This document shows, piece by piece, positions 23,817-62,942 of a stretch of DNA of 64,000 nt; the stretch's first letter is position 1; each line of letters begins with the position of its first letter. This DNA comes from Patescibacteria group bacterium (GTDB lineage: Bacteria; Patescibacteriota; Patescibacteriia; Patescibacteriales; JBAZCA01), in NCBI GenBank assembly GCA_041671125.1, contig JBAZCA010000001.1, positions 72,120 to 136,119 on the forward strand. The letters are read 5' to 3'. The position numbers and the translations under genes were made by a program. The notes beneath the pieces were generated by a model. That model searched no databases, was not told the DNA's origin, and saw only the letters and a program-made list of their open reading frames with translations.

Positions 23817-23924
23817 GATATAAAATTTTTAATTTTGTAATTTTTAATTTTTAAACAATTTCAAATTTTTCAATGACTTAATTTCCAAACATTTAATCAT
23901 TGAATAATTAATACATTAAAAATT

Positions 23925-42873: not shown

Positions 42874-42974
42874 AAAAATAATTCAAAATTAAAAGTTAAA
42901 AATTATGGAGTCCGCCCGAGGCGGACGGAATAATTTACCTAAATTTTGCATTTTTAATTTTTAATTTTGAATTT

Positions 42975-43544
42975 TTATAGGTTATACGCTTCTCCCTTAT
43001 TAAATAATTTTATCTTGTCAAAAGGAAATCCCCGCAGTAGCACCCGACCGACTAAAAAACTTTCATTCACCGGTCCAAAGCTTCTTCCGTCTTTGGACGA
43101 ACCGCGGTTGTCGCCGAGGACGAAATATTCATTGCTTTTCAGTTCCGTGGTTTCGTCGTCCGAATAACCGTAAGTTTTTAGTCCGTCCGGGAGGTAAGGC
43201 TCTTCCAGCTTAACGCCCTGGGGATTTTTTTCGTTAATTATGTAAACACTCCCGTCCGCGATCCGCACAGTCTCACCCGGCAGTCCGATCACCCGTTTTA
43301 TAAAAAATTCCTGGGGATCCTTTGGATAACGGAAAACAATTATATCGCCGCGCTTTGGGACGCCGAGATGGTAAGACAGCTCGTCAATGATAAGGTATTC
43401 GTGGTCATGGAAATTCGGCTCCATGGAAGCGCCTTTGACGTAAAACGGCTGGATTAAAAACTGCCTCACTGGAATGATGATGACGAGAGAGATGACAACG
43501 ATTTTTACCAGCTCCAAAAGGAACGTGAAAAAGTTTTTTATCAT
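42975..43544 (-). CDS. lepB: Signal peptidase I
   Basis: N-terminal TM. Catalytic Ser box KGASMEPNF. Lys box YFVLGDNRGSSKDGRSFG. Confidence 0.92.
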   Translation of the reverse strand: MIKNFFTFLLELVKIVVISLVIIIPVRQFLIQPFYVKGASMEPNFHDHEYLIIDELSYHLGVPKRGDIIVFRYPKDPQEFFIKRVIGLPGETVRIADGSVYIINEKNPQGVKLEEPYLPDGLKTYGYSDDETTELKSNEYFVLGDNRGSSKDGRSFGPVNESFLVGRVLLRGFPFDKIKLFNKGEAYNL

Positions 43545-47730: not shown

Positions 47731-48816
47731 ATGGACATAAAATACCTGGCCGCCCTGAATACTTATACGAAATTCGGGCCGGTTCGCTTCAAAAAATTAA
47801 AGGCGCGCTTCCCTTCCTGGCAGGCGGCTTTTTACGCCGGAGTAAGCGAATTAAAAAGCGCCGGGATTGACGAAAATATCGCCCTGGATTTTATAAGCCG
47901 GAGAAAAGCTATCAATCCCGACGCGATCATGGAAGAAATAATCCGGGAAAAAATCAGTCTTATAACTCCGGAAGACCGGCGCTATCCCGGGATACTAAAA
48001 GAAATCCCCGATTTTCCCCCGCTCCTTTATCTGCGGGGCGAATTAAAAACCGAGGATGATTTTTCTTTGGCCGTAGTCGGGGCGAGAAAATTTTCTTCTT
48101 ATGGCAAACGGCTTACCGAAGATATCGTCCGCGAACTCGCGCGGTATAAAATTACCATAGTGAGCGGCTTGGCTTTAGGAATTGACGCTTTAGCCCATTC
48201 CGCCGCGCTTTTAGCCGGCGGCCGGACTATTGGGGTTTTAGGTTCCGGAGTTGACCGACAAAGCGTTTATCCGGTCGCTAACCAAAATATCGCGGAAAAA
48301 ATTATCGCCGAAGGCGGGGCGATTATAAGCGAATTTCCTTTGGGCACCCCCGGATTAAGGCATCATTTCCCTCAAAGGAACCGGATTATCGCCGGACTGG
48401 CAAAAGGCGTCCTCGTTATTGAAGCCGGAGAAAAATCCGGTTCGCTTATTACCGCCCGTTTCGCGCTTGATTTTAACCGGGAGGTTTTCGCGGTCCCTGG
48501 TAGCGTCTATTCTCCGGTTTCGGCCGGCGCCAACGCGCTCATAAAAGAAGGCGCAATCCTCACCCGAAACGGCAACGATATAATTGAGGCGCTTGACCTT
48601 AAGCGCGTATCCTTATATATTGAAACTAAATCCGTAATGCCGGAGACCAAAGAGGAAAAAATCCTTCTTTCTTTTTTAAGCGGCGAATCGGTTCATGTGA
48701 ACGAATTAATCCGCCTTTCCGGCCTGCCCGCTTCAACGGTTACCGGTTCATTAACCATCATGGAAATGAAAGGCATGATAAAGAATCTCGGGGGGATGGA
48801 GTATGTGTTAGTTTAG
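47731..48816 (+). CDS. dprA: DNA-processing protein DprA (Smf)
   Basis: VSGLALGIDALAHSAALLAGGRTIGVLGSGVDRQSVYPVAN...FPQRNRIIAGL, plus a C-terminal wHTH. Confidence 0.9.
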   Translation: MDIKYLAALNTYTKFGPVRFKKLKARFPSWQAAFYAGVSELKSAGIDENIALDFISRRKAINPDAIMEEIIREKISLITPEDRRYPGILKEIPDFPPLLYLRGELKTEDDFSLAVVGARKFSSYGKRLTEDIVRELARYKITIVSGLALGIDALAHSAALLAGGRTIGVLGSGVDRQSVYPVANQNIAEKIIAEGGAIISEFPLGTPGLRHHFPQRNRIIAGLAKGVLVIEAGEKSGSLITARFALDFNREVFAVPGSVYSPVSAGANALIKEGAILTRNGNDIIEALDLKRVSLYIETKSVMPETKEEKILLSFLSGESVHVNELIRLSGLPASTVTGSLTIMEMKGMIKNLGGMEYVLV

Positions 48817-48910
48817 TCCCTAAGTCAAGAAGTAAAAAGTCAAAAGTTAAAGTCCACAAGCAAGAATTTAAATTGACTTTGGACTTTTGGACTTTCCGAC
48901 TAATTTTTTT

Positions 48911-51148
48911 ATGAAATTAATCATCGTTGAGTCGCCAACCAAGGCCAAAACCATTTCCAAATTCATTTCCAAAGACTATAAGGTTGAGTCTTCTTTCGGG
49001 CATATTCGCGACCTGCCAAAAAGCGAAATGGGAATTGATATTGAAAACGATTTTACGCCCGAATACGTAATTCCGCTAAAAAGCCGGAAAACCGTAGCTA
49101 ACCTAAAGGCTTTGGCTAAAAAAGCGGAAAAAATTATCCTGGCCTCGGACGAAGACCGGGAAGGAGAAGCGATTGCCTGGCATTTAGCCGAAGCGCTGAA
49201 GCTTAATAAAAGCCAGACCCAACGGATTGTTTTCCATGAAATTACCAAGCCAGCCATACTTAAAGCCATTGAAAATCCCCGGGAGATCAATAGCCACCTC
49301 GTTGACGCCCAGCAGGCGCGCCGGGTTTTAGATCGCCTCGTCGGCTACGAGCTTTCGCCCTTTTTATGGAAAAAAGTCGCTCGCGGACTATCGGCCGGCC
49401 GGGTGCAATCGGTGGCCGTCCGGTTAATCGTTGAACGGGAACGCGAAATTAAAGCTTTTAAAGCCGAAGAATACTGGAGCGTCTCAGCCCTCCTGGCCCG
49501 GACCAAAGAAAAAGATTCCCAATTTGAAACCAGGCTCCATAAAATAAACGGCAAAACCGTTGAAAAACTCCAGATAAAAAATGAAGTTGAGGCCGATAAA
49601 ATCTTATCCGACCTTAAAGGCGCGGAATACAAGGTCGCGGAAGTCGTAAAAAAAGAAGGAACAAAAAACCCTCCCCGGCCGTTTACTACTTCCACCCTCC
49701 AGCAAACTGCCAACCGCTGGCTCGGATTCTCCGCCAAGCAGACCATGACCCTAGCTCAAAGGCTCTACGAAACCGGCCTTATTACTTACATGCGTACCGA
49801 TTCGGTAAACCTCTCGGAAAAATTCCTCGCCGACGCCGGAGTTTACCTTAATAACGCTTTAGGCGGAGAATACGCGCTTAAAACTCCGAACCGCTACAAA
49901 ACAAAAAGCAAAGGCGCCCAGGAAGCCCATGAGGCTATCCGGCCGACCGAAGCGGCCGATGACCCTGAATCCGTAAAAGACAAGCTGGAGTCCGGCCAGT
50001 ACCGGCTCTATAAACTGATCTGGCAAAGATCAATCGCCTCGCAGATGCCGCCAGCCAAGGTTGACGCTACGACCATAGACGTTGACGCGGAAAAAGACGG
50101 CCGAGCCGACTACCAATTCCGGGCGACCGGCCAGGTAATAAAATTTGACGGTTATTTAAAAATTTATCCGGAGAAAAGCGCCGAAATTGAATTGCCAGAA
50201 GTGGAAGTTGAAGAAGCGCTTGATCTTATAAAACTAAGTGGCGAAGAACATTTTACTAAGCCGCCGGCCCGCTACTCGGACGCCGGACTGGTTAAAGTTT
50301 TAGAAAAATACGGTATCGGCCGGCCGTCCACTTACGCCCCGACGATCGCGACGATTGAGACGCGGAATTACATGGAGCGGGACGAAAATAAAAAATTAAA
50401 GCCGACTGATATCGCTTTCGTAGTAAACGACCTTTTGGTCGCCCATTTTCCCAATATCGTTGACTTTCAGTTTACGGCCGGCATGGAAAACAATCTTGAT
50501 GAAATTGCCGAAGGGCGGCAGAAATGGCAGCCGGTGATAGGAGAATTTTATGTTCCTTTCCATGATAATTTAATAAAAAAGCAGGACGAACTGAAAAAAT
50601 CCGACATCATCCCCGAAGAAAAATCCGAGGAGGTCTGCGAAAAATGCGGCTCGGCCATGATCATTAAAACCGGACGCTGGGGAAAATATCTTGCCTGTTC
50701 CAATTTTCCGGAATGTAAAAATATCAAATCATTGCCTAAAGCGGGCGTAACCGCCGATCCCGAGACGGAAGCAAAGCTAAAAGCGCTTCAGGAAAAATAC
50801 AAGGACGAAGTTTGCGAAAAATGCGGCTCAGCGATGGTTATAAAAAACGGCCGCTTTGGACCGTTTTTAGCCTGCTCCGGCTATCCGAAATGCAAAAACA
50901 TAAAAAGCATTACTGAAAATTCCGGCTCTACCGGAATAAAATGCCCTGTCTGCGGAGAGGGGGAAATTGTCATGAAGCGAAGCCGACGCGGCCCCTTTTA
51001 TGCCTGCAACCGCTACCCGGACTGCAAAACTTCTTTTTCTTCTAAACCCACCGGCGAAAAATGCCCGGACTGCGGCGCGCTTCTTCTAGAAGCAAAAGAC
51101 GGCGGAGTTAAATGTTCGGCTAAAGGTTGCGGGTATAAGACCGCGTAG
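48911..51148 (+). CDS. topA: DNA topoisomerase I (four C-terminal zinc ribbons)
   Basis: MKLIIVESPTKAKTI (Toprim). ITYMRTDS active-site Tyr region. Four C-x2-C...C-x4/5-C fingers. ATG 48911 preferred over TTG 48887. The stop TAG lies inside a REP stem. Confidence 0.93.
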   Translation: MKLIIVESPTKAKTISKFISKDYKVESSFGHIRDLPKSEMGIDIENDFTPEYVIPLKSRKTVANLKALAKKAEKIILASDEDREGEAIAWHLAEALKLNKSQTQRIVFHEITKPAILKAIENPREINSHLVDAQQARRVLDRLVGYELSPFLWKKVARGLSAGRVQSVAVRLIVEREREIKAFKAEEYWSVSALLARTKEKDSQFETRLHKINGKTVEKLQIKNEVEADKILSDLKGAEYKVAEVVKKEGTKNPPRPFTTSTLQQTANRWLGFSAKQTMTLAQRLYETGLITYMRTDSVNLSEKFLADAGVYLNNALGGEYALKTPNRYKTKSKGAQEAHEAIRPTEAADDPESVKDKLESGQYRLYKLIWQRSIASQMPPAKVDATTIDVDAEKDGRADYQFRATGQVIKFDGYLKIYPEKSAEIELPEVEVEEALDLIKLSGEEHFTKPPARYSDAGLVKVLEKYGIGRPSTYAPTIATIETRNYMERDENKKLKPTDIAFVVNDLLVAHFPNIVDFQFTAGMENNLDEIAEGRQKWQPVIGEFYVPFHDNLIKKQDELKKSDIIPEEKSEEVCEKCGSAMIIKTGRWGKYLACSNFPECKNIKSLPKAGVTADPETEAKLKALQEKYKDEVCEKCGSAMVIKNGRFGPFLACSGYPKCKNIKSITENSGSTGIKCPVCGEGEIVMKRSRRGPFYACNRYPDCKTSFSSKPTGEKCPDCGALLLEAKDGGVKCSAKGCGYKTA

Positions 51149-51173
51149 AGACGCGATTAATCGCGTCTCTACG
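51144..51173. repeat. REP hairpin a (GTAGAGACGC family)
   Basis: cgtagagacgcg-attaat-cgcgtctctacg. Contains the topA stop codon (51146-48). Confidence 0.9.
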
Positions 51174-51253
51174 GATGTAATTTTACCGTTTCGTCCGGAC
51201 GCAATCATCCGCACCGCGCGCGCGTCATCCCGCGGCGCAACCCGATTAACCGC

Positions 51254-51282
51254 GTAGAGACGCCCCGTCGGGGCGTCTCTAC
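51254..51282. repeat. REP hairpin b
   Basis: gtagagacgcccc-g-t-c-ggggcgtctctac. Confidence 0.9.
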
Positions 51283-51293
51283 AAAATGCGTCT

Positions 51294-54218
51294 TTACCTT
51301 TTCGCTCCTGAGTAAGCAATCGCTCTCACAATATCCCAGGCCATCGCCGATTTCGGCGCGTAACCGTAGATGTTTTTGAAGAATTGGATGGATTTTTTCT
51401 CTGAGTTCAGATTTCTATTTGTTGGCCTGAGGCCATAGGAAATAACGGCAATGGCGTTTTGGTCGCGTGGGTTATTCTTGTCCGGCAGTCTCAGGTAAAT
51501 CTTTTTGAACGCGGCCGAGGCATTAGCCTCGGTTTTTTCGTTCTTTTGGGCGGGCCATCGGCCGTTAGCGATTTTAATTATGTCCTGCCAGTCAATTTCA
51601 GTGGCCGGGTTCCGGCCGTAGGCCGATTTAAACGAGTTTACTACCCCTGAGCGCTCGCCCGAGCCGAGGATTTTAGTGGTGTCCGTGCCATTGGTGATAA
51701 AATTGGTTAATACATCTTTCTTGGCGGCGACTATCTCTTTGGCCTCGGACATTAGTTTTTCCAGCGTAGAGATGCCCCGCCGGGGCGTCTCTACGCTGTT
51801 TTGCCGGGTTGCTGTTTTATTCTCCTGATTATCACTAACATCACTTCCCTCACTATCATCTCCTGCCGCGTCATCACCCGGGCTGGTATCGTTATTACTG
51901 TCATTGCCAGTATTGGCAGTGGCGCTGTTGCTATTTTGGCTATTCAGTAAATAGACCGGAATTGTATTGCAGTCCCGGGTATAGTTAAACGTGTTGGAAT
52001 TGGTAGTATTGCCGTTATTATCCACGGCTATGACATACCAACTATGGGAACCGCAGGATAGGTTCTGACCCGGGGTTTGGGAGGCGGCAATATTGGAGAT
52101 ATTGTCAGAGTCCAGGGTATTGTCTATGTAGAGCTGGTATTTAGCTATTCCTGATTCCGTGTCAGACGAGGCGTTCCAGCTGAGGGTCGGGCGGGAGTCG
52201 GAGTTAACCGTATTATTGGCTGGCGAAGAGGCAGTAAAACTCGCCGGGCTGGTTATATCTTTTTCCAGTTCAAATGTATGGGTAGAATAGCCGCCGGAGT
52301 AGGTGAATTGGACAATGCCCGAGGAGTCGGAGAGGCAGGTCAGGTTGGTGCCGTTTCCGTAACTGGTTTGGCAGGTGGTAGCGCCATAACCGGTGATGGC
52401 AGTCGTAGTCGCCGTATTGTCAATCTTGAACGTGTAGTAGCTATCCGGGGCTAAATCGCCAATGGTGTAAACCGTAGAGGTGGCGTGGGTATTTCCCGCT
52501 CCCTCGGTTGAGGTCGCCGTCCAGGATTTATTCTTGTCGCCCGCGGTTTCCCAGGTATTAATATTTAAATCCATGAATGCCGAGGTGGAGGCGGTGTAGT
52601 ACCCGCCTCCGGCGGGTACTACCGAGAAGTTAGAGGTAGCAATGGTGTCAGCGGTGGTAGTGGCGACGAGAGCCCGGTATTTGCCGTTAGAATATATTCG
52701 GACCGAGCCGGTTTGGGGGATAGCGTTAGAGCCCACGGTATATGGCGGTTGGTATTCGTAAGCCCCAATGTCGGGAGTGCCGTAGATGGGGTTGCCGGCG
52801 TAGTCGGTGGTGAGGGAGACGTCGGTGCCAGAGTCGATGGCGGGGGAGGTGGGGTCGGGGATGTAGGTGCCAGTTTGGAAGAGGGGGTCAGATGTCATTT
52901 CGTTTGTTGACGTAACAGTCCCTGATGTCTTCGCGGTATTACCATAAAACCCATTATAATCTACCGTGGGCGTTCCGGCAACCTGTTGAATCCCCATCGC
53001 TAAGTTCATAAATTCATTATTCTTGACCACCAGAGTTCCCTGAGCATAGATACCCTTTCCGTCTTTTGTCGCTTCATCGTAAAAAACATTATTAATGATA
53101 CTGCACGTTGCGTTGGTTCTACAGGCAACCCCAAACTTCGCACTTGCTATGGTGTTAAATATATTATGGCTTATGTTTGCGGTAACAGTGCCGGTCCCTA
53201 CCGTGTCAATAATATGATCCGTGATACCATTAAAGATTGACCGTTTGACTGTTAGCGCAACCGCCGCCCCTTGTATTTCTATACCTGCCGCTCCTGTATT
53301 GGTTGCATTTCCGTTGAGCGTCAATCCGTTGATGGTCATGCTTCCACCATTCAAGTTGATATATTTAGTAGTTGTCCCAACGGGAATATTGGATATTGTT
53401 ACTGTATTTATGGTCAGATTAACATTATTGTTTCCTGTGACCAATATTATTGGATTAGTTAGTCCACCACCTGTTTTATTAATAGTAAGACGGTTATATG
53501 TCGCGTTTATAGTTCCTGCCACATCGGTATGAAATACATCCTCAAGCGTTGTGCCACTGATCGTAATATCGTTGGCAGTAAGGGTTGTTGTGCTATCCGA
53601 TGCTACGGTATTAACCCCTTGGGAATTTCCCGTGAACGATCCTGTATTAATGACCGCTGTTCCCCCGTGCATTGAAAAGCCATCATCGGTGTTATTATTT
53701 GCGCTTATATTGTTAAACGTGACAGTTGAGTTCCCTTCCATCTGGAACCCTTGGTTCCCCATAGAATTGCACGATACATTACTCACTGTTCCAATGGATG
53801 CTCCCCTAAACTGTATTCCATCAGTGGTCATATTGGTTATAGTGCCATTCATAATAACTATACCCGTGCGACCATTTATATCAATTCCTGTAATTGTATT
53901 TACACCATCTCCACTGATTGCAAATCCGCCAAGGTTAATCGTGATGTCATTTCCCCCCACATTCAAGACATCCCCCGCATTGGTACACGAGAGATTTCCA
54001 GCCAGTGTATATGAGGAGGTTACGGTATCACCACAGTTACAGGCAGTCACTCCACCACAATTAGCCGCACTCGCCTTCCCCACTCCCAAAACAAAAAAAC
54101 TTCCCAAAAATAACAGGAAGAAAAAAACAAATCTGGAAAATTTTAGATTTTGAGGTTTAGTTAAGAGAGAGAGAGAGAGAGAGACGGCTTTCATGTTTTT
54201 GTATTTATCCCGACGCAT
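51294..54218 (-). CDS. Large secreted right-handed beta-helix (PbH1-type) surface protein with conserved C-terminal domain
   Basis: Signal/TM segment FVFFFLLFLGSFFVLGV. Many G-x-N/T-rich ~22-aa turns (IMNGTITN, FNNISANNN, ...). Low-complexity linker. The start could be ATG 54218 or 54194. An in-frame REP lies at 51765-96. Confidence 0.7.
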   Translation of the reverse strand: MRRDKYKNMKAVSLSLSLLTKPQNLKFSRFVFFFLLFLGSFFVLGVGKASAANCGGVTACNCGDTVTSSYTLAGNLSCTNAGDVLNVGGNDITINLGGFAISGDGVNTITGIDINGRTGIVIMNGTITNMTTDGIQFRGASIGTVSNVSCNSMGNQGFQMEGNSTVTFNNISANNNTDDGFSMHGGTAVINTGSFTGNSQGVNTVASDSTTTLTANDITISGTTLEDVFHTDVAGTINATYNRLTINKTGGGLTNPIILVTGNNNVNLTINTVTISNIPVGTTTKYINLNGGSMTINGLTLNGNATNTGAAGIEIQGAAVALTVKRSIFNGITDHIIDTVGTGTVTANISHNIFNTIASAKFGVACRTNATCSIINNVFYDEATKDGKGIYAQGTLVVKNNEFMNLAMGIQQVAGTPTVDYNGFYGNTAKTSGTVTSTNEMTSDPLFQTGTYIPDPTSPAIDSGTDVSLTTDYAGNPIYGTPDIGAYEYQPPYTVGSNAIPQTGSVRIYSNGKYRALVATTTADTIATSNFSVVPAGGGYYTASTSAFMDLNINTWETAGDKNKSWTATSTEGAGNTHATSTVYTIGDLAPDSYYTFKIDNTATTTAITGYGATTCQTSYGNGTNLTCLSDSSGIVQFTYSGGYSTHTFELEKDITSPASFTASSPANNTVNSDSRPTLSWNASSDTESGIAKYQLYIDNTLDSDNISNIAASQTPGQNLSCGSHSWYVIAVDNNGNTTNSNTFNYTRDCNTIPVYLLNSQNSNSATANTGNDSNNDTSPGDDAAGDDSEGSDVSDNQENKTATRQNSVETPRRGISTLEKLMSEAKEIVAAKKDVLTNFITNGTDTTKILGSGERSGVVNSFKSAYGRNPATEIDWQDIIKIANGRWPAQKNEKTEANASAAFKKIYLRLPDKNNPRDQNAIAVISYGLRPTNRNLNSEKKSIQFFKNIYGYAPKSAMAWDIVRAIAYSGAKR
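51765..51796. repeat. REP hairpin c, in-frame inside the beta-helix protein gene
   Basis: gcgtagagatgccccgccggggcgtctctacgc. Translated as ...SVETPRRGISTLE.... Confidence 0.9.
54164..54184. repeat. (AG)10 dinucleotide microsatellite within the 5' coding region
   Basis: agagagagagagagagagaga encodes SLSLSL, between the candidate start codons and the signal-peptide core. Confidence 0.95.
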
Positions 54219-54263
54219 ATCCGCCGAGCGGATTTAACGGGGTTTGATTTTATTATTTATCCC

Positions 54264-54291
54264 GTAGAGACGCATTGCAATGCGTCTCTAC
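54264..54291. repeat. REP hairpin d (45 nt downstream of the RAYT stop)
   Basis: gtagagacgca-ttgcaa-tgcgtctctac. Confidence 0.9.
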
Positions 54292-54336
54292 CCTGCACAT
54301 ATTATAGCTGATTATTTTTTCTTTTTCAATAGCTTT

Positions 54337-54957
54337 TCACATCCAAATATTCTCCACGTTATTCCTGTCACGTTCCCACATCGCCGGATTGTTAATAATA
54401 TATTCCCGGATTCGGTTTAAAGATTCGTCGTTCCTGATAATGTGATCGTAAAAACGGGATTGCCAGGCGAAATTAGGATATTCGGATTTCCAAATTTTTT
54501 TCGTGCAGACCGATTTAATTTGATTTATAATTGAACCCAATGAATTTGGTTTCCATTGCGGATTATATCCGCCACGTTTCAATTTATCATCAACCGCAAC
54601 CATCGCGGTGGTAGAGACGCCCCGGCGGGGCGTCTCTACCGTCGCGCGGGGCGTCTCTACGGATGATTTGATCTTGCACAAAATTTCCAAAATTGCGTGC
54701 AAATGATTCGGCATAATTATCCATTCATCCAAAATTACATTCTGACGAATTATCGGCGTTTGCGACAATTCCTCCTGAACGATTTTCCCGATATCATTTA
54801 AACTCATTTTTCCGTTTTTAACCTCTCCAAAATAATGTTCTCTGTCTTTCGTGCAAATCGTTATGAAATATACGCCGTTTTGACTATAATCATAGCCTTC
54901 CAATCTGGCGGATTTGATGCGAAATTTATTTTTAAATCTTTGTGATATTGGCAACAT
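54337..54957 (-). CDS. REP-associated tyrosine transposase (RAYT; IS200/IS605 Y1 HUH family)
   Basis: YDYSQNGVYFITICTKDREHYFG. HUH motif IMPNHLHAIL. Tyr helix WQSRFYDHIIRNDESLNRIREYI. Interrupted in-frame by REP sequence. Confidence 0.8.
   Translation of the reverse strand: MLPISQRFKNKFRIKSARLEGYDYSQNGVYFITICTKDREHYFGEVKNGKMSLNDIGKIVQEELSQTPIIRQNVILDEWIIMPNHLHAILEILCKIKSSVETPRATVETPRRGVSTTAMVAVDDKLKRGGYNPQWKPNSLGSIINQIKSVCTKKIWKSEYPNFAWQSRFYDHIIRNDESLNRIREYIINNPAMWERDRNNVENIWM
54611..54660. repeat. REP hairpin e plus an extra half-site, in-frame inside the RAYT gene
   Basis: gtagagacgccccggcggggcgtctctac followed by cgtcgcgc-ggggcgtctctac. Translated as SVETPRATVETPRRGVSTTA. Confidence 0.9.
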
Positions 54958-54970
54958 TCACGATTATCAC

Positions 54971-55270
54971 TCACTTCTTCCCTTTTCCGCCTCCCTCTTT
55001 CCTTCCGCCTTTCTCTTTAACGTAATCCATTACCTTTTTCATGCCCTCGTTCATCATGACGAAAAAGGCGGCGGCTTCTTTAACTTTGCCGCGAAAGGCT
55101 CTTACCGTTTCTTTTGCTTCGGTTATTATTTCGCGAATGTCTTTACTAACCTGATAAACGTTCCGCAAGCTCATGGCCAGGTAGTACATAAGCCAGCAAA
55201 GAAAAAAAGCCACTCCGGCGACGGAGACGGCGAGTACCAAATTTAAAATGTCTCGACTGGTAGAAAACAT
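54971..55270 (-). CDS. Small membrane-anchored coiled-coil protein
   Basis: 99 aa. One N-terminal TM (LVLAVSVAGVAFFLCWLMYYLAM), then a helical region and a Lys/Gly tail. Confidence 0.5.
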   Translation of the reverse strand: MFSTSRDILNLVLAVSVAGVAFFLCWLMYYLAMSLRNVYQVSKDIREIITEAKETVRAFRGKVKEAAAFFVMMNEGMKKVMDYVKEKGGRKEGGGKGKK

Positions 55271-55365
55271 ATGGTACGAGTCCAGCAGTCCATTAGCCGA
55301 ATAGTCAGACTGTCAGACTACGGACTAATTGACTAACTGACTAACTGACTATTAGACTATTTTGG

Positions 55366-55683
55366 CTAATCCGGATTTTCGTCAATCTCAATTTTAATTC
55401 CTCCGATTTTTTTGGCGACAAAATTGTAGATCGCGGCGATTACGTAACCGATAATCCAGCCGAACGCGCCGCAAACGACAAAAGTCAGGACGCCAAAAAG
55501 GATGCCGGCGGCGACATGGAAAAAGACGACCGCCGCGGCTGATCCGGCGAAACTCGCCTGAGCTATTATATTGCCGCCGACTAAAATCGCGAGAACTATG
55601 CTTACGAAAAACCCGATAGTCCCGTAAACCGCGCCGATAATTTTAGCCAGGCTCGCGTTGTTGATTTTTTTTATTTCAGTCAT
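55366..55683 (-). CDS. Small integral membrane protein (3 TM)
   Basis: 105 aa, hydrophobic throughout. Confidence 0.5.
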   Translation of the reverse strand: MTEIKKINNASLAKIIGAVYGTIGFFVSIVLAILVGGNIIAQASFAGSAAAVVFFHVAAGILFGVLTFVVCGAFGWIIGYVIAAIYNFVAKKIGGIKIEIDENPD

Positions 55684-55763
55684 AAATCAGACAATAGACA
55701 TCAGTAAATAGTAAATAGAAACTTTATAACTCTATTGACTATTGTCTATTTACTGTTTACTAA

Positions 55764-58238
55764 TTAAAAGTCTCTTACTCTGGCCCCGAACTTATCCCCA
55801 AGATGTTTTACCAGCGCGTTCTGCGCTTCTTCAACCTCTTCGGACTTCATGGTTCGGTCGGCCTGATAAATAATATGGAACGCGAGGCTCTTCTTTCCGA
55901 TTTCCAGCTTTTCTCCCTCGTAGGCATCAAACACTTCAGCGCTCTTAACGAGTTCGGAAAATTTTTCTATCTCTTCTTTTATATCATTATACAATATTTT
56001 CGCGTCAAGGACAAAGGCTAAGTCGCGGATTATTGGCGGATATTTTTCAAACTCCGAATAACCGGCTGGCCGGGGGAAAAATTGCTCCAGCTCCAGAAGG
56101 TCAAATTCGGCGATGGCTGTTTCTTTTTTTACGCCAACGCGTTTCGCGATCCGGGAATCAAGACATCCGACAATTCCGATCCGGACGCCTTCGGCTGAAA
56201 TTCCGGCCGCGCGAACGCCATCCATCCAGCCCGGTTTTTCATCAAGCAGGCTAAACTTAACTTTCAGCCCAAGGCTTTCAAAGAGAAAGCCGGTTATTGA
56301 TTTTACTTTCAAAAAAACTTCATCCGCTTCGCCGCCGGCAACCGCTATCCCTAACCGCTCAAACTGCGCCGGAAGCTTATCTTTTCCCAAAGCGTCCCTG
56401 TCAATTTCTCCGGGCCGGTTAAAATAAACCGTGCCGATTTCAAAAAGTCCGATCCGATCCCGGCGAGCCTGGTTCTTTTTTATGTTTTCTATAAGATTGG
56501 GGGCGAGCGCCGGCGTTAAAAAGTTCATGGTCTCTGCTATCGGGTTTAAAAGTTTTATCGCGCTCCCGGCGTCAATCTGGAGCTTTGAGAGCTGTTCCTC
56601 GCCTACGAAAGAATAGTTATAGCTTTCGGTCAGACGGGCGCCAAAAGCCAGGATCTCCCTGATCTTTTTTTTCATGTCCGGCGCTTTTTCGCGCGGCATC
56701 CGGCCAAGACTTATTTCCGGCATGTCCGGCGTAATTTTATTGTAGCCGTAAATCCGCGCCACTTCCTCAACAACATCCTCTCTGATACTTACGTCTTTTC
56801 CGGCTCGCCAAGTCGGGATTGTTAAAGAAAATGAGCTATTTTTCTTCGCGATGCCGAAACCGAGGCTCTTTAATATCCTCGTAACTTCCTGTTCCGGAAT
56901 ACCTTCCCCGATCCGCTCCTCAATCCAGCTTAACTTTATTTCCAGCGGCCCGGTAAACTGCTGAAAATTATTTTCATCCGTTGTTTCGCTTATCACTCTC
57001 GCCGAAGGGCAGATTCGCTTTATCAATTCCGTAGCGCGGTAAAGGGCGATTGCGGCCAGATTGGGGTCAAGTGATTTTTCAAAGCGCATTGATGATTCGC
57101 TCCGCACTCCCAGGTAGCGGGAAGTTTTTCTTATGGAAGCAAAATCAAAATTGGCCGATTCAAGGACTATAGAATCAGTTTCTTCCGATATTTCGCTTAA
57201 AACCCCGCCCATTACCCCGGCAATCGCGATTGGCTTTTCCTTATCGGCGATTACGAGCGTTTCTTCGTTTAATTCCCGCTCTTTCCCGTCAAGCGTCGTT
57301 ATCGCCTCGCCTTTCTTCGCCCGTCTCACGTTTATATCGCATTCAAAAATTTCTTTTTTATTTAATTCCGGCTCCAGTTTCGCGAGGTCAAAAGCGTGCA
57401 GAGGCTGGCCAACGTCAAGCATGACGTAATTCGTCGCGTCAACGATATTATTAATCGGCCGGACTCCGGCGGCGATAAGCCTTTGGCTAAGCCATTCGGG
57501 CGAAGGTCCGATTTTAATTCCGCCCATGGCAAGCGCCATGTACCTCGGCGCCAGCTTATTATCTTCAACCGCCACCCTGATGCGGGCAAGCTTATCATCG
57601 GTTTTTATTTTCAATTTGCCGGATTTTTGCCCGGACAATGCCGCGTTAATTTCTTCGGCTTTTTTCGTTAGCCGGGAATCTAAAAACGCGGCGATTTCCC
57701 TCGCCACCCCGAGATGCGACCAAAGATCCGGCCGGTTGGTTATGGATTTATTATCTACCTCAAAAATCACGTCGCTTAGCCCAAGGACTTCAACGAGCGG
57801 TTTTCCGGTTTTAGTATTTTTATCTAAAATCATGATGCCCGCGTGATCATCCCCGAGACCGAGCTCGTCCGGAGCGCAGAGCATGCCCTGGGATTTTACT
57901 CCCCGGACTTCCACCTCTTTAATTTCAAGGCCGTTAGGTAAAACCGCTCCGATAAGAGCGAGCGGAACCATCTGTCCGGCTTCTATGTTCGGCGCGCCGC
58001 AGACGATTTCCAATTTTTCTTTTCCGGTATCAACCAAAGCCAACCGCAAACGGTCGGCGTCGGGATGCTTTTTTACCTCAATAATTTCCCCGGCAATGAC
58101 GTTCTTAAACTTTTCGGCCTGACTGGAAACACCTTCAATCTCAACCGTATGCAAAGTTAAAAGCCGCGCCAGCTCGCCGGGCGTAATATTTTTCGGAATT
58201 TCAACGTAATCTTTTAGCCAGTTTAGGGATAGATACAT
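55764..58238 (-). CDS. pheT: Phenylalanine--tRNA ligase beta subunit
   Basis: MYLSLNWLKDYVEIP, tRNA-binding OB domain (HPDADRL), B3/4, B5 and FDX-ACB-like C-terminus. ATG 58238 preferred over the track start 58277. Confidence 0.93.
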   Translation of the reverse strand: MYLSLNWLKDYVEIPKNITPGELARLLTLHTVEIEGVSSQAEKFKNVIAGEIIEVKKHPDADRLRLALVDTGKEKLEIVCGAPNIEAGQMVPLALIGAVLPNGLEIKEVEVRGVKSQGMLCAPDELGLGDDHAGIMILDKNTKTGKPLVEVLGLSDVIFEVDNKSITNRPDLWSHLGVAREIAAFLDSRLTKKAEEINAALSGQKSGKLKIKTDDKLARIRVAVEDNKLAPRYMALAMGGIKIGPSPEWLSQRLIAAGVRPINNIVDATNYVMLDVGQPLHAFDLAKLEPELNKKEIFECDINVRRAKKGEAITTLDGKERELNEETLVIADKEKPIAIAGVMGGVLSEISEETDSIVLESANFDFASIRKTSRYLGVRSESSMRFEKSLDPNLAAIALYRATELIKRICPSARVISETTDENNFQQFTGPLEIKLSWIEERIGEGIPEQEVTRILKSLGFGIAKKNSSFSLTIPTWRAGKDVSIREDVVEEVARIYGYNKITPDMPEISLGRMPREKAPDMKKKIREILAFGARLTESYNYSFVGEEQLSKLQIDAGSAIKLLNPIAETMNFLTPALAPNLIENIKKNQARRDRIGLFEIGTVYFNRPGEIDRDALGKDKLPAQFERLGIAVAGGEADEVFLKVKSITGFLFESLGLKVKFSLLDEKPGWMDGVRAAGISAEGVRIGIVGCLDSRIAKRVGVKKETAIAEFDLLELEQFFPRPAGYSEFEKYPPIIRDLAFVLDAKILYNDIKEEIEKFSELVKSAEVFDAYEGEKLEIGKKSLAFHIIYQADRTMKSEEVEEAQNALVKHLGDKFGARVRDF

Positions 58239-58326
58239 ATAAATTTCATATAACACATAACATGGAACACGTAACAAATAGTTTTAACCAAGATTATTAT
58301 GTGTTGTGTGTTCTATGTTATGCAAG

Positions 58327-59373
58327 TCAGAATTGCTCAAGAAATCTCAAATCTCCGCTATTAAATAATCTTATATCTTCAATGCCGTATTTTAGCTGGA
58401 CAATCCGGTTTAAGCCGAATCCGAAAGCGAAACCGGTGTATTTTTCCGGATCAATTTTACCGGCTTTGAGCACGTTCGGATGGACCATCCCGGCGCCGAA
58501 AATTTCCAGCCAGCCGGTCTGTTTGCAAAGCCGGCAACCTTGGCCATGGCATAAAAAACAGGTTACTTCCCCGTTAAATCCCGGCTCAACGAACGGATAA
58601 AATTTTGGCCGCAGGCGCACTTCGGTTTCCGGGCCGTAAAGATGTTTGGCCATGGCTTCTAAAATCCCTTTTAAATGCCGGATGTTTATATTCTTATCAA
58701 CCATCAAACCTTCCAGCTGATAAAAAGTATGTTCGTGCCGGACGTCGGTCGCTTCGGAACGGAAACATCTTCCGGGGACGACGCATCTTAAGGGAGGGCC
58801 GTATTTCAGCATTGACCGGACCTGCATGGGCGAAGTATGGGTGCGCATGACTAAATCCGGCGCTCCGCCTTCTTCGCCTTTGACGTTAAGGCCTTTCGGG
58901 TCAATATAAAAAGTATCCTGCATGTCGCGGGCCGGATGCCACTTCGGGATATTTAAAGCCTCAAAGCAGAAATAATCGCTTTCCAGCTCCGGGCCTTCCA
59001 AAACCATGAAATTAAGGCCGCGAAAAAAATCCTCCAGGTCTTCGCGGACTATGGTTATCGGATGAAGATGGCCGCGCGCGATTTTTCCGCCCGGCAGAGT
59101 CGGGTCGGAAAAGCCCGGTTTTTTCGCGGCGCTTTCAAAAATTTCCTTGGCTTCTTCAAACTTTTTTCTTATTTCCGATTTCAACTCATTAGCCAGCTTT
59201 CCGGCTTCTTTTTTTTCTTCATCAGTAAGCTTAGCAACGTCTTTTAATATTCCGGCCAATTCCCCTTTGCGCCCGAGAATTTTTATTTCCAGTTCGCGCA
59301 AAACCCCGCCGTCTTTCACTTCGGACAGTTTACTTAATATTTCTTCCTTAAATTTTTCAATTTTATTTTTCAT
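58327..59373 (-). CDS. pheS: Phenylalanine--tRNA ligase alpha subunit
   Basis: HPITIVREDLEDFF, class II motifs (RTHTSPMQVR, FRSEATDVRHEHTFYQLEG, GAGMVHPNVL). Confidence 0.95.
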   Translation of the reverse strand: MKNKIEKFKEEILSKLSEVKDGGVLRELEIKILGRKGELAGILKDVAKLTDEEKKEAGKLANELKSEIRKKFEEAKEIFESAAKKPGFSDPTLPGGKIARGHLHPITIVREDLEDFFRGLNFMVLEGPELESDYFCFEALNIPKWHPARDMQDTFYIDPKGLNVKGEEGGAPDLVMRTHTSPMQVRSMLKYGPPLRCVVPGRCFRSEATDVRHEHTFYQLEGLMVDKNINIRHLKGILEAMAKHLYGPETEVRLRPKFYPFVEPGFNGEVTCFLCHGQGCRLCKQTGWLEIFGAGMVHPNVLKAGKIDPEKYTGFAFGFGLNRIVQLKYGIEDIRLFNSGDLRFLEQF

Positions 59374-59750
59374 ATTGCTTTTTTATAACTCACCAAAAAG
59401 AATTCAAGGATGCTTAAACCTAAAACCAGAAATCCGAGGTTCGCCCAGTTAAATAAATCTTTGGATAAAAGGATTAGCGCGACAATAACCAGAGCGGCGA
59501 ATAAAAACGACTGGCGAAAAGCTTCTATGACTGAGCGGCCGGCTAGTTGCCGTTTTAGGGTAATAAACCGGATTACAAAACCGAAGATGGCCGCCGCGCC
59601 GGTTATGGCCATGAAAAGCGAAGCGTAAAAAAGGATAAAACCGACCCAGTTCGTAATCTCCGGGTTGACAGTCCAGGCGACGTAAGAAAAAACCGCGAAG
59701 CAGGCAACGGCCGCCAGAGTCATGATGAATAAATACATTTTCAGTCCCAT
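59370..59750 (-). CDS. Integral membrane protein (4 TM), function unknown
   Basis: 126 aa. 4-nt overlap with the pheS start. Confidence 0.5.
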   Translation of the reverse strand: MGLKMYLFIMTLAAVACFAVFSYVAWTVNPEITNWVGFILFYASLFMAITGAAAIFGFVIRFITLKRQLAGRSVIEAFRQSFLFAALVIVALILLSKDLFNWANLGFLVLGLSILEFFLVSYKKAI

Positions 59751-59881
59751 GGAAAAAAATTACAAATTACGAATTACGAATTACGAATTACGAATTTTTC
59801 CAACCTTAATTATTAATCCGTAATTTTTAATTCTACAAACATGTTATCACTTATCGGCTCATTTTTCAACACCCCGCGGCC

Positions 59882-59911
59882 GGTAGAGACGAAAAATTTT
59901 GCGTCTCTACC
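59882..59911. repeat. REP hairpin g
   Basis: ggtagagacg-aaaaatttt-gcgtctctacc. The helicase stop codon TAG (59909-59907, minus strand) lies in its arm. Confidence 0.9.
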
Positions 59912-62900
59912 GGCTCACTTTCCTGAACTCGCAAATTCCGTTAAAGTCGCACCAGCCGCAGGCCATGCCCGGTTTAGGAGCAAAGTTACAGGAGCGAATG
60001 CCGGAAATCAGGCTAAAAGTTATTTCTTTAAACTTTTCAAGATCTTTTTCTTTGGCCTCAAAAGAAACCGCGGTCCCGTTATCAAGGTAATAATAAGCCA
60101 GCTCGGAAACTTTATGGCCAAAAAGGCTTTCCACCGCGATCTTATATAAAATCAGCTGTTTCTTCTCGTCAAAAGTAAGTTTTTCTTTCGGCGAACCGGT
60201 CTTATAATCAAGAATGCGGACTGTCCCGTCCGGAAGGCGGTCCACCCGGTCAATCGCGCCGCGGAACATATACTCTCCGAGCCGGACGGCAAAACTTTTT
60301 TCAAGGTATATCGGTTCGGGCCAACCGTTTTCTTCCAGGCTCTTATAAAACATTTTAAGCGATTCCCGGCCTTTCTTTTTATAACCTTCCCTCTGTTCTT
60401 TACTATCATAGCCATCATCCTCCCAGCGGGTTTCAAAAATTTCCATGAGCCTTTCTTTATCCGGCTTTTTAATTTCTTTTTCCGCTGAACCGAAGAGCCC
60501 CGGCTGGGCAATATCGCCCTTCATGAGCGTAAAAAGGAAATCCCTTAAGATGCCGTGCATCACCCGGCCGTAAGTAAAGACCGGTTTGCCGGGCGTCGGG
60601 ATCTTTAGAATATAGTTAAATTTATATTGCAAAGGGCAGGTTGCGTAGGTCTCAGTCTGGGAAAAAGAAAATTTCTGGGGCAGATAATATTTATCGTTGC
60701 AATCCGGCGCTTTGGAAAAAGAGGCCGCTCCGGCCAGATCCCTTAAAAAATCATTTGTTTCGCCTTTTAGAACCAAGGTCGCCGGCAAAACAGACATATC
60801 TTCCATTCCGGCTTCGGCTAAAAAGCGGGAAATTTTTTTCTTTCTTACCCCGCCGTAATCCTCGGCGCTCGTAAAGAAAAGCTTTTCTTTGGCCCGGGTC
60901 ATGGCAACGTAAAAAAGCCGGCGCTCTTCTTCTAAATGCGCGTCGCTCGTCTCCGGCAATTTCTCCCGCACTAACGCGTCGGGAATAGCGATTTTTTCCG
61001 AACGCCCGACGGTCGGAAATTTCTTATCAACGACATTAACAATGAAAACGTATTTGAATTCTTTTCCTTTGGCCGCGTGGACGGTCATTACTTTTATTGT
61101 GTCCGCGTCGTCGGCTTGCGTGTTTAAGGAGCCGGTCTCGCCTGATTCCATTTCCAGGGCTAGAAGCTCCATGAACGCCCTTAACCGCAAATCCGGATCA
61201 TTATCCTCGTAAAACTTTATCCTTTTATAAAACTGACCGATATGGTTAAAAATTTCCTTGTCGCGGTCAAAATCATAATCCTTAATAAGACCCGATTCGT
61301 TAATGAAATTTAAAAAAATCCGCGAAGGCTTTTCCCGGCGCGATAATTCCGAATGACGCCGAACCATGGCAACGAGCTTTCCGGCGGCCGCGGCCGATTC
61401 CGGGCTGACTTTCGGCACGGCGGTGATATTTAAAATCCCCTCGTACATGGACCAGCCCTTGGCGCGGACAAAATAATTAACGGCGATAATATCGGCGTGG
61501 CTTAAGCGGAAAGCCGGAATATTTAAAACCCGGTAGAGAGCCGATGACTCATGGTAATTGTCCAGCAGTTTAAAATAAGCAATAATATCTAAAATCGCCG
61601 GTTTATAATAAAGCCCTCTTTGCGAAACAAAATCTACCGGAATATCGCGCCGCTTTAATTCGGCGATGAATTTTCCGGCCGTATCGTTAGCGCGGGTTAA
61701 AATCGCGAAGTCCAGCCAGGCCGCGTCTTTATCAGCGTCCTTCAGGCTAACGATTTTTTCCACGACGTTTCGCGTTTCTTCTTCTTCGTTGGCAAAGCGC
61801 AAATGCGCGACTTCGCCTTTTTCTTTTTTTCCGGCTTTTAAATCTTTATTAATTTTCAATTTTACTTCCAGCCGGTTCGGGTCGTTATGCTTAATAAATT
61901 CATACGCCTTATTAAGGATTGCCTGTCCGGAGCGGTAATTCACGCCCAAAACCACTTCGCTGGCTCCCGGAAAATCGTCTTTAAACTGCATGATGTTGGA
62001 TAATGACGCCCCGCGGAATTTATAGATTGACTGGTCATCATCCCCAACAACAACCAGATTTTTTTTCTCTCCGGCCAAAAGTTTTATCATTTCATACTGC
62101 GCCCAGTTGGTATCCTGAAATTCGTCCACCATGATGTATTTGAATTTTTTCCGGTAAAAATCCAGTATGTTAGGACGTTCTTTAAAAAGCTTAAGTGTGT
62201 AATAAATGAGATCGCCGAAATCAAGATAACCATTATCCAGTAATAATTTATTATAAACATGATAGGCGTTGGCGAGCTCCATGATCCTTAAAACCTCCAT
62301 TCCGTCAATTTTATTTTTATCTTCGGTTTTGATTTTGGATTCGGGTTTTGACGTGGATTTATGATTTTTCGTTTGGAAATTGGAAATTTTATTTGTCTTG
62401 CTTCCGGATAGCATAGCGTCGCCATCCTGCTCTAATTCACCCGCGTACGCTAAGTATTCCGCCGGGGTTATATCTTCGTCCTTTAACCGCGAAAAATGCT
62501 TTAAAAGTTCGTGGATGAACTTAGTCGGATTGCCGAGCGGCCGGTAATAATCCAGGTTAAATTCTTTCAGGTTCTTTTTAACCATCACCCAGGCTTCGGT
62601 TTCAGTAATCACTTTAAAATCACCGGGCAGGCCGATGTCTAAAGCGTGTTCGCGCAAAATCCGTCCGCAAAAATCATGAAAGGTTGAAATCCAGCGGTCA
62701 ACATAACCGTAAGGAAGAAGCTTATCCGCCCGCTCGTCCATTTCTTCGGCCGCTTTGCGGGTAAAAGTGATTAAGAGAATTTCCTCCTGCTTTGCCAGAC
62801 CCTTTTCAATTAGAAAAGCCAGCCGGCTTATTAGCGCCGTCGTCTTTCCGGTTCCGGCGCCGGCCACGATTAAAAGCGGCCCGTCCGTATGCGTCGCCGC

Positions 62901-62942
62901 CTTTTTCTGCTCGGGGTTAAGGCTGTCTATATAGTTATTCAT
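59907..62942 (-). CDS. UvrD/PcrA-family helicase fused to a C-terminal PD-(D/E)XK nuclease with a 4-Cys cluster (AddB/Cas4-like)
   Basis: Walker A AGAGTGKT. DEFQDTN. C-terminal CPLQYKF...IDRVDRL...ILDYKTG...CNFAPKPGMACGWCDFNGIC. Confidence 0.88.
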   Translation of the reverse strand: MNNYIDSLNPEQKKAATHTDGPLLIVAGAGTGKTTALISRLAFLIEKGLAKQEEILLITFTRKAAEEMDERADKLLPYGYVDRWISTFHDFCGRILREHALDIGLPGDFKVITETEAWVMVKKNLKEFNLDYYRPLGNPTKFIHELLKHFSRLKDEDITPAEYLAYAGELEQDGDAMLSGSKTNKISNFQTKNHKSTSKPESKIKTEDKNKIDGMEVLRIMELANAYHVYNKLLLDNGYLDFGDLIYYTLKLFKERPNILDFYRKKFKYIMVDEFQDTNWAQYEMIKLLAGEKKNLVVVGDDDQSIYKFRGASLSNIMQFKDDFPGASEVVLGVNYRSGQAILNKAYEFIKHNDPNRLEVKLKINKDLKAGKKEKGEVAHLRFANEEEETRNVVEKIVSLKDADKDAAWLDFAILTRANDTAGKFIAELKRRDIPVDFVSQRGLYYKPAILDIIAYFKLLDNYHESSALYRVLNIPAFRLSHADIIAVNYFVRAKGWSMYEGILNITAVPKVSPESAAAAGKLVAMVRRHSELSRREKPSRIFLNFINESGLIKDYDFDRDKEIFNHIGQFYKRIKFYEDNDPDLRLRAFMELLALEMESGETGSLNTQADDADTIKVMTVHAAKGKEFKYVFIVNVVDKKFPTVGRSEKIAIPDALVREKLPETSDAHLEEERRLFYVAMTRAKEKLFFTSAEDYGGVRKKKISRFLAEAGMEDMSVLPATLVLKGETNDFLRDLAGAASFSKAPDCNDKYYLPQKFSFSQTETYATCPLQYKFNYILKIPTPGKPVFTYGRVMHGILRDFLFTLMKGDIAQPGLFGSAEKEIKKPDKERLMEIFETRWEDDGYDSKEQREGYKKKGRESLKMFYKSLEENGWPEPIYLEKSFAVRLGEYMFRGAIDRVDRLPDGTVRILDYKTGSPKEKLTFDEKKQLILYKIAVESLFGHKVSELAYYYLDNGTAVSFEAKEKDLEKFKEITFSLISGIRSCNFAPKPGMACGWCDFNGICEFRKVSR

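Follow-up and report, generated by a model that had tools for sequence, protein, structure and literature searches.

The DNA analysed here is a 64,000-nt stretch of contig JBAZCA010000001.1 from a Patescibacteria group bacterium (GenBank assembly GCA_041671125.1; positions 72,120–136,119 of the forward strand), referred to below as the window. It carries, on the minus strand at 54337–54957, a gene for a 206-aa REP-associated tyrosine transposase (RAYT, or TnpA_REP) of subclass 2.4 (Bertels Group 4), together with six GTAG-headed repetitive extragenic palindromic (REP) sequences within 5 kb on either side. The gene itself contains one of these REPs; a second stands some 45 nt downstream, and the other four are farther away. 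The locus is very probably a REPtron of TnpA_REP subclass 2.4, composed of one intact Y1 gene and a small local family of double-foot REPs.

A local family of double-foot palindromes

The arm sequence GTAGAGACGC has 11 exact matches when both strands of the window are counted, whereas dinucleotide-preserving shuffles of the same DNA predict 0.03. All 11 fall within 51145–59910 (8.8 kb), with none in the remaining 55 kb. A search that tolerates one mismatch gains three further sites only: the partner arms at 51766 and 59883, and a half copy at 51288. The 11 arm matches pair into six palindromes of 28 or 29 nt each; by a rough estimate, six random sites would share one 8.8-kb span of 64 kb with a chance of about 3e-4. 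Every palindrome consists of a conserved 10-nt outer arm, four variable but complementary inner nucleotides and zero or one central nucleotide. The outer 9–10 bp are conserved, reading GTAGAGACG(C)...(G)CGTCTCTAC, while the inner 4 bp vary and remain paired.

Three of the elements are perfect palindromes with differing inner stems: REP-1 (51145–51172; 28 nt, inner GATT/AATC), REP-2 (51254–51282; 29 nt, inner CCCG-T-CGGG), which is accompanied by a one-arm copy at 51288–51297, and REP-4 (54264–54291; 28 nt, inner ATTG/CAAT). REP-5 (54611–54639) is a full 29-nt palindrome with inner CCCG-G-CGGG and a one-arm copy at 54651–54660; it also forms the centre of an extended imperfect palindrome at 54604–54646, whose 21-nt arms are 90% complementary. 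REP-3 (51766–51794; 29 nt) and REP-6 (59883–59910; 28 nt, inner AAAA/TTTT) each contain one mismatch, and in both the palindromy runs 4 bp per side past GTAG and CTAC, to 51762–51798 and 59879–59914, respectively. All six begin with GTAG and end with CTAC, as double-foot REPs do. Folded as single-stranded DNA, all six form hairpins of −12.5 to −25 kcal/mol (z −4.6 to −8.7), and no shuffled sequence folded as stably as any of them. A scan of the window with Rfam at the gathering threshold returned two tRNAs only, and nothing at the REPs.

The first-pass annotation, made from the letters alone, had placed at least six hairpins near the gene at positions that agree with ours to within 1 nt, including "1.5 copies" at 54611, which are the full palindrome and half copy of REP-5. 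It had also described variable palindromic loops. These segments are indeed variable and self-complementary, but they form the distal 4 bp of a 14-bp stem and are not loops, and the last of them, given as aaaaatttt, had taken in a mismatched stem position.

A seventh GTAG...CTAC palindrome lies at 52596–52622 (GTAGTACCCGCC-TCC-GGCGGGTACTAC), with a 12-bp stem and a 3-nt loop. It is in frame within the open reading frame (ORF) of the neighbouring beta-helix protein, where it encodes VVPAGGGYY; it may have been left over from a different REP family or have formed by chance.

A RAYT-type protein with a predicted REP-encoded loop

The 206-aa translation of 54337–54957 contains the three segments singled out by the first-pass annotation as Y1 hallmarks, YFITICT, MPNHLHAIL and WQSRFYDHIIR. 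The HUH motif corresponds to H85-L-H87 in MPNHLH, and W165-Q166 lies in AWQSRF. The catalytic tyrosine had been implied to lie in WQSRFYDH; it is instead Y186, because EYIINNP aligns with DYIYINP of the E. coli TnpA_REP structure 4ER8, where HLH likewise falls on HMH. This structure was the sole match when a profile of 45 homologs was compared with the PDB, and H85-L-H87 and Y186 are invariant across those homologs.

Profile searches, which the first-pass annotation had named as the means to classify the protein and to overturn its reading, place it among RAYTs. With the full-length protein, Pfam family PF01797 (Y1_Tnp) scored 22.8 bits against a cut-off of 23 and matched the C-terminal half only; removal of residues 97–133 raised this to 30.3 bits in one stretch covering profile positions 7–121 of 121. 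The best family by a wide margin was NCBIfam NF047646 (REP_Tyr_transpos), at 67.1 bits in two stretches, or 75.5 bits in one stretch without the loop, both below its equivalog cut-off of 80. The IS200 transposase equivalog NF033573 scored 18.3 bits against a cut-off of 55. The profile matches are split in two because REP-5 with its one-arm copy (54611–54660) is inserted in the ORF, where it is in frame and encodes SSVETPRATVETPRRGVST between H87 and W165. An AlphaFold2 model of the protein (predicted TM-score 0.73) has a core with pLDDT >90 and a loop at residues 97–129 with pLDDT <50, situated between strand 85–92 and helix 140–157. Residues 97–129 are, on this model, a predicted disordered loop encoded by the REP. 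A Foldseek search with the same model gave 4ER8_A as the top hit (E 1.7e-5, root-mean-square deviation 3.1 Å), with the transposases of ISDra2 and IS608 next in rank.

The protein ends 20 residues past the catalytic tyrosine and has no C-terminal extension domain. Its closest database relative, at 95% identity, comes from a Patescibacteria metagenome-assembled genome and bears the JGI name "REP element-mobilizing transposase RayT"; tblastn found one RAYT copy in the 64 kb. Comparison with an 87%-identical ortholog on a near-relative contig (L081) gave a ratio of nonsynonymous to synonymous substitution rates (dN/dS) of 0.18, and the gene is therefore under purifying selection. Sequence profiles and the structural model together support the identification of this ORF as a RAYT-type Y1 HUH protein with an intact reading frame.

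REPs at homologous RAYT loci

Homologs of the RAYT number more than 7,900 and occur in many phyla. For comparison, 80 loci were picked by protein homology only and L081 was added, giving 81 loci from Chloroflexota, Bacteroidota, Cyanobacteria, Patescibacteria, Gammaproteobacteria, Nitrospirota and others. They contain 97 GTAG...CTAC palindromes with at most one mismatch, of which 65 are 28 nt and 31 are 29 nt long; positions 1–9 are conserved and positions 10–14 variable. Of the 97, 47 are internal to the RAYT gene and 32 are no more than 1 kb away from it. REP density is 2.05 per 10 kb at distances of up to 1 kb and declines to zero past 7 kb, where there are no palindromes of this kind. The REP-plus-RAYT arrangement recognised in the first-pass annotation is thus borne out by profile and fold matches and by palindromes tied to the gene family across these loci. 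Between internal and flanking REPs that belong to one locus, 1.8 of the 14 arm positions differ, compared with 4.5 for REPs from different loci; the REP sequence therefore tracks the linked RAYT. Linkage to GT[AG]G-headed palindromes that also recur elsewhere is what the definition of Nunvar (2010) asks of a RAYT gene, and both the window and the 81 loci show it.

An internal REP is present in 45 of the 73 RAYT genes with an identifiable HUH..WQ frame (42 by another count) and missing in about one third of RAYT genes. Among the 45 closest homologs, VETP..RRGVST stands at the same position, in some cases as two copies flanking long inserts. More widely, the linker from HUH to WQ measures 132–390 nt in the 73 homologs, and the internal REP is read in the VET frame in 25 cases, in the xRD frame in 19 and in the TAG frame in none, at variable offsets. 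The same DNA palindrome consequently yields peptides as unrelated as VETLHCNVST, RRDAMHCVST and VGAHGRAPL. Since the palindrome is read in two frames and at variable offsets, it is the nucleic-acid structure that is conserved, not the peptide.

At one homologous locus (L052, 9650–9833), three identical 28-nt double-foot REPs (GTAGGGCCATGCCATGGCATGGCCCTAC) follow each other at an exact 78-nt spacing, approximately 170–350 nt 5' of the RAYT gene; the internal copy of that gene is degenerate.

REPs in metagenome and viral contigs

An unbiased metagenome scan, using the exact foot with free inner 8–9 nt, identified 120 contigs. Of 131 metagenome REPs, 92 have complementary bases in every one of the four inner pairs (0.4% expected), with 59 distinct inner sequences among them, and 13 of the 120 contigs carry a RAYT. 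The same sample contains eight copies of GTAGAGACGCACGGCCGTGCGTCTCTAC, a sequence listed for Chloroflexus aggregans in Table S1 of PMC6006769. Approximately 158 of the REPs are not part of a RAYT gene; 20 of these provide the TAG that ends an open frame of 80 codons or more, and 29 are read in frame within long ORFs. REP-supplied TAG stops and in-frame REPs in other genes have been described previously (Di Nocera 2013, PMC3733652).

The exact REP (GTAGAGACGC-N8/9-GCGTCTCTAC) also occurs in 91 viral contigs of IMG/VR (L202–L292, 806 kb). One of these, the 24.8-kb contig L206, belongs to a genuine tailed phage by PHROGs annotation (tail sheath, major head, maturation protease and adaptor proteins) and carries at least six REPs; those at 3972–3999, 10978–11005 and 12835–12862 lie 6–10 nt after the sheath, major-head and protease genes. 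BLAST of cultured GenBank phages with one 30-nt REP variant gave chance matches of 16–21 nt only, the variable inner stem being unsuited to BLAST.

Neighbouring genes and placement of the REPs

Neighbouring genes were checked against Pfam. The plus-strand gene topA (48887–51148) is followed by a minus-strand gene for a 974-aa right-handed beta-helix surface protein (51294–54218) and then by the RAYT gene. Between the RAYT region and a minus-strand gene for a UvrD-helicase/PD-(D/E)XK nuclease (59907–62942) lie two small ORFs without annotation, then pheT and pheS. Four of the six REPs are at gene 3' ends, and three of these four supply the stop codon. The topA stop is the TAG of the REP-1 GTAG (51146–51148), and the helicase/nuclease gene stop is the TAG of the REP-6 GTAG on the minus strand (59909–59907). 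The stop of the beta-helix ORF is the TAA of a degenerate arm, GTAAAGACGC, which is the one-arm copy of REP-2 (51296–51294, minus strand). This arm lies exactly on the native stop, because all aligned homologs of the C-terminal domain end in ...SGA[KT]R. REP-4 is approximately 45 nt 3' of the RAYT stop and approximately 45 nt 5' of the beta-helix ORF. REP-3 lies in frame within the beta-helix ORF, to which it contributes SVETPRRGIST as part of a low-complexity linker preceding the conserved C-terminal domain. A T-run was sought 3' of the four gene-end REPs and none was found. Intrinsic rho-independent terminators are ruled out as an explanation of the palindromes by this absence and by the two REPs inside ORFs. 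The generic terminators that the first-pass annotation had raised as a counter-reading are rejected likewise, since T-runs are missing and some copies are intragenic.

Other features of the beta-helix gene were recorded in passing. Homologs of its C-terminal part of approximately 190 aa (51294–51900), which ends in ...AWDIVRAIAYSGAKR, number 332; most are in Patescibacteria proteins whose N-terminal parts differ, and no Pfam family is recorded over this C-terminal part among the homologs listed. An (AG)10 tract on the plus strand at 54164–54183 reads as (CT)10 in the first approximately 20 codons of the ORF, encoding SLSLSL; the L081 ortholog is without the tract, which is a candidate slipped-strand phase-variation switch. 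Elsewhere in the window are tandem repeats of period 7 (7760–7833, 10730–10802, 11353–11469, 23824–23854, 42942–42977 and 59758–59796) and of period 8 (55323–55351), with units that include AATTTTT, GAATTAA, TCTCATA, AATTACG (5.6 copies) and GACTAACT. Those at 55323–55351 and 59758–59796, the two that were placed, are intergenic. Long AT-rich inverted repeats occur among the short tandem repeats, for example at 7763–7833, 11353–11453 and 48813–48903, the last just 5' of topA.

Site-by-site comparison with a close relative

The window and L081 share only a block containing the RAYT and beta-helix genes, at 83–93% identity. Homology stops at the RAYT 5' end (window 54937, L081 10105), adjoining an L081 REP at 10065–10092, and the genes upstream of the break are unrelated; the boundary, as read from the two sequences, is a synteny break at a REP.

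Within the shared block, the arrangement at REP-2 is the same in both contigs, and REP-3 is kept in the L081 ortholog, where it is perfect. REP-3 is absent from more distant beta-helix homologs, whose linker is unalignable, and a nucleotide-exact empty site for it was not obtainable, as L081 is also filled. At the site orthologous to REP-4, L081 carries a different, re-centred inner stem (GAGGCATTGCCTC); the two palindromes have GCATTGC in common and their centres differ. The ortholog of REP-5 is a single REP, so that the additional 24-nt arm copy is a gain of the window relative to L081.

Flank complementarity and one-arm copies

Complementarity of at least 4 bp between the two flanks was found for 21 of 131 REPs, compared with 0.5 expected, with a bump at exactly 4 bp; complementarity of at least 6 bp was found for 9 of 131, compared with 0.03 expected. 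The longest cases reach 14 bp and are locus-specific (L068 10282–10337, inside a RAYT ORF, and L153 2022–2077), and others in the range of 4–14 bp include L096 3119–3168, L183 and L036 10623–10670. One-arm copies beside full REPs are direct in 52 cases and inverted in 4, among 341 contexts. They are often tandem, with periods of 16–21 nt. Examples of one-arm copies are those at L001 9788–9848, L078 10539–10602, L105 and L123, and those of the window at 51288–51297 and 54651–54660.

Hairpin-templated copying and slippage are established biology for quasipalindromes. The flank complementarity, the stutters and the re-centring, all of them patterns in sequence, would fit such copying or slippage acting on top of protein-mediated spread. 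As an alternative, flank complementarity could come from the insertion of REPs into pre-existing short palindromes.

A regular array at 12081–13004 of L014, 2 kb from the RAYT gene, consists of a 179-nt tandem unit in 5.2 copies, each containing a REP and stutter. A CRISPR-like array was considered for these regularly spaced REPs and ruled out, since this is a tandem repeat and not a spacer array.

Relationship to described systems

A literal literature search for GTAGAGACGC returned unrelated primer sequences only, and a match was later found in the supplement of PMC6006769. In that work, Quentin, Siguier, Chandler and Fichant (2018, BMC Genomics 19:475) define TnpA_REP subclass 2.4, which is Group 4 in the RAYT classification of Bertels et al. 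(2017, PMC5581495). Proteins of the subclass carry the signature NH[IFV]H / WQ / YIxNNP, average 194 aa and have an insertion of variable length and sequence that separates beta3 from alphaC; its "double foot" REPs begin with 5' GT[AG]G and end with 3' C[TC]AC; the authors consider that such a REP possibly derives from a collapsed dimer (PMC6006769). In-frame REPs within tnpA_REP, between HuH and Y, are called a remarkable and unique feature in the same paper. Group 4 spans 17 bacterial classes, with flanking 16-mers at approximately 14 copies per replicon (PMC5581495).

The RAYT of the window resembles this subclass in its NHLH, WQ and YIINNP motifs, in its length of 206 aa, close to the mean, and in its beta3-alphaC insertion and lack of a C-terminal extension. 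Its REPs share the GTAG/CTAC ends, the in-frame internal copy and a foot identical to that of GTAGAGACGCACGGCCGTGCGTCTCTAC, and their low copy number in the window fits the figure of approximately 14 copies per replicon reported for Group 4 (PMC5581495). The window departs from the subclass in having L as the central HuH residue where the consensus is [IFV], in the extra arm stutter of the copy inside the gene, and in its host from the Patescibacteria (candidate phyla radiation), a group that we did not find named in the available portions of PMC6006769 and PMC5581495. What the first-pass annotation took for a distinctive variant is therefore the double-foot REP already published for subclass 2.4 (PMC6006769). 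The arrangement as a whole was described in 2018, and the window is a further example with a Patescibacteria host.

Other systems are more remote. The E. coli TnpA_REP (RayT/YafM, Group 2; 4ER8, Messing et al. 2012; PMC8266576) has the same Y1 HUH fold and a GTAG head on its REPs, and its WQxRF..H.IRN segment and Y-I-x-x-NP catalytic helix align with the window protein; identity is only approximately 16%. In E. coli the REP hairpin is imperfect, has a bulge that is essential, leaves GTAG unpaired and is dispersed in hundreds of copies, whereas the REPs of the window have GTAG paired with 3' CTAC, a perfect stem and few copies, one of them intragenic. The Pseudomonas REPIN-RAYT system (Group 3; Bertels & Rainey 2011, PMC3116915) combines a domesticated Y1 gene, there in single copy, with palindromes that co-vary with it, and resembles the window in this pairing of a Y1 gene with cognate repeats. 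REPINs, however, are doublets of inverted REPs with a spacer, in hundreds of copies genome-wide, and each REP of the window is one symmetric palindrome, few in number and clustered near the gene. Insertion sequences (ISs) of the IS200/IS605 family (IS608, ISDra2) share the HUH/Y1 core, the recognition of a folded single-stranded DNA hairpin and a tetranucleotide 5' of the hairpin that guides cleavage. They have distinct left and right ends and move as a unit, often with tnpB, whereas the window has a single gene copy, hairpins that occur alone and an IS200 profile score of 18 bits.

Proposed mechanism

We propose a route by which the REPs of this locus could have spread, modelled on the E. coli, Stenotrophomonas and Marinomonas enzymes and on IS608 rather than on subclass 2.4 itself. 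By analogy with these, the palindrome would fold in DNA that has become single-stranded, as on the lagging-strand template; a RAYT dimer would bind the hairpin foot and the GTAG tetranucleotide; the enzyme would cut at a CT or CA dinucleotide chosen by GTAG; and rejoining of the strands would copy or move REPs, preferentially near their own gene. In Groups 2 and 3, GTAG is recognised and helps to select the CT or CA cleavage site (PMC8266576). In the double-foot REP, the CT of the 3' CTAC is Watson–Crick paired with the AG of GTAG. Guide/cleavage-site pairing of this type has been proposed for other RAYTs, and it is a speculation by analogy that this CT is the cleavage site.

Insertions would persist where they are tolerated: after genes, often donating the TAG of GTAG as a stop; in disordered protein linkers, read in the VET... 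or xRD... frame; and in the disordered beta3-alphaC loop of the RAYT itself. The survival pattern of the insertions is best explained by tolerance combined with a local (cis) bias of action. Settled palindromes would, most plausibly, be kept symmetrical and remodelled by hairpin-templated copying, of which the compensated inner-stem changes, the inverted flank duplication and the arm stutter are visible traces.

A bolder proposal, which we think unlikely although with a real chance of being right, is that double-foot REPs are built and continually reshaped by hairpin-templated synthesis round a protein-recognised 9-nt foot, beyond any cutting and pasting by the RAYT. Copying of one arm from the other would then keep the inner stem perfectly paired while it diverges; the flank complementarity would record inverted duplication of as much as 14 bp of neighbouring host DNA, and the tandem one-arm stutters would be a further trace; the copy in the RAYT frame would be a maintained master or cis-regulatory copy, and action in trans on infecting phage DNA would leave REPs in phages that have no RAYT.

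Weighing of alternative explanations

The REPtron reading competes with several others that explain part of the data. REPs are concentrated in and around the gene, and the gene stands in a different genomic context in L081 with homology breaking exactly at a REP, as would be expected if an autonomous IS200/IS605-type IS moved its Y1 gene with terminal hairpins and the hairpins were IS ends and debris. What L081 shares is, however, the RAYT plus a 3-kb beta-helix gene rather than a 1-kb unit bounded by hairpins; the window has one copy and no tnpB; the RAYT model scores 75.5 bits against 18.3 for the IS200 model; most metagenome and phage palindromes are solitary; and both ends are identical symmetric palindromes rather than distinct left and right ends. 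We reject an IS200-type IS on profile scores and anatomy, and consider it very unlikely. Another alternative makes the hairpins RNA elements of the host, for example ones that stabilise or terminate mRNA at its 3' end, which are selected for that role and have no connection with the Y1 gene. It could account for the four of six REPs at gene 3' ends and for the phage REPs of L206 that come just behind the genes for tail sheath, major head and protease; in E. coli, REPs do act on mRNA (PMC3733652). No T-run follows the gene-end REPs, however, and the same palindrome is in frame inside ORFs, including 45 of 73 RAYT genes, while the GTAG head and the co-variation of REP and RAYT locus are left unexplained. 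This makes the explanation most unlikely as a whole, although an RNA role can coexist with RAYT-driven spread, and only the "unrelated" part is rejected. It is barely conceivable that the intragenic palindrome is there because the enzyme requires a conserved protein motif, VETPRRGVST, and that its likeness to the other hairpins is incidental. Its near invariance in the 45 closest homologs is what such a motif would predict; wider homologs read the palindrome in two frames at variable offsets, on which grounds we reject the motif, and about one third have no internal REP. The region is, moreover, predicted to be disordered, and its removal raises the profile scores.

A different division of labour, in which palindromes arise and spread mainly by hairpin replication errors and the RAYT binds or processes them but does not transpose them, has more in its favour, namely the excess of flank complementarity (21 of 131 REPs against 0.5 expected, up to 14 bp), the 52 direct against 4 inverted one-arm copies, and the re-centred palindrome at an orthologous site of the window and L081. 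To our knowledge, REP transposition by any RAYT has never been shown in vivo. Replication errors, however, cannot explain how one and the same 9-nt foot came to stand at unlinked positions, in genes of unrelated kinds and in phages, and it is the foot, not the inner stem, that is conserved across phyla, which points to recognition by a protein; we regard this division of labour as quite unlikely. Several observations nevertheless weigh against the REPtron reading. The RAYT falls short of the NF047646 equivalog cut-off even without its loop, from which we infer that this family represents the divergent subclass 2.4 poorly. The only REP directly flanking the RAYT of the window is that at 54264, and the REPs upstream of the RAYT in L081 are missing in the window; the counts come from the 64,000-nt window and hence give no genome-wide REP total. 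No RAYT is nearby on 107 of the 120 REP-bearing metagenome contigs, and none was found on the 91 REP-bearing viral contigs. Gene proximity is therefore a tendency and not a rule, and action in trans must be assumed. RAYT biochemistry covers Groups 2 and 3 only, not Group 4 (Corneloup et al. 2021, PMC8266576), and remodelling by template switching is suggested by patterns in DNA sequence only.

Significance

With this locus, a little-studied published class (subclass 2.4 / Group 4) is extended to a bacterium of the candidate phyla with a small genome. It is compact, with six REPs, one of them in the gene of the enzyme and one in a surface-protein gene, and a relative allows comparison site by site. 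For annotation, it follows that REPs encode peptides such as VETPRRGVST and RRDAINRVST and also some stop codons. The flank inverted duplications, the one-arm stutters and the REPs in RAYT-less phage contigs may be unreported, judging from the available portions of the published accounts. Together with the cross-phylum 9-nt foot and the paired but free inner stem, these sequence patterns could help to explain how REPs are born and spread. If hairpin-templated synthesis round the foot proved to be true, it would give a mechanism for REP genesis and a new mark of host–phage linkage.

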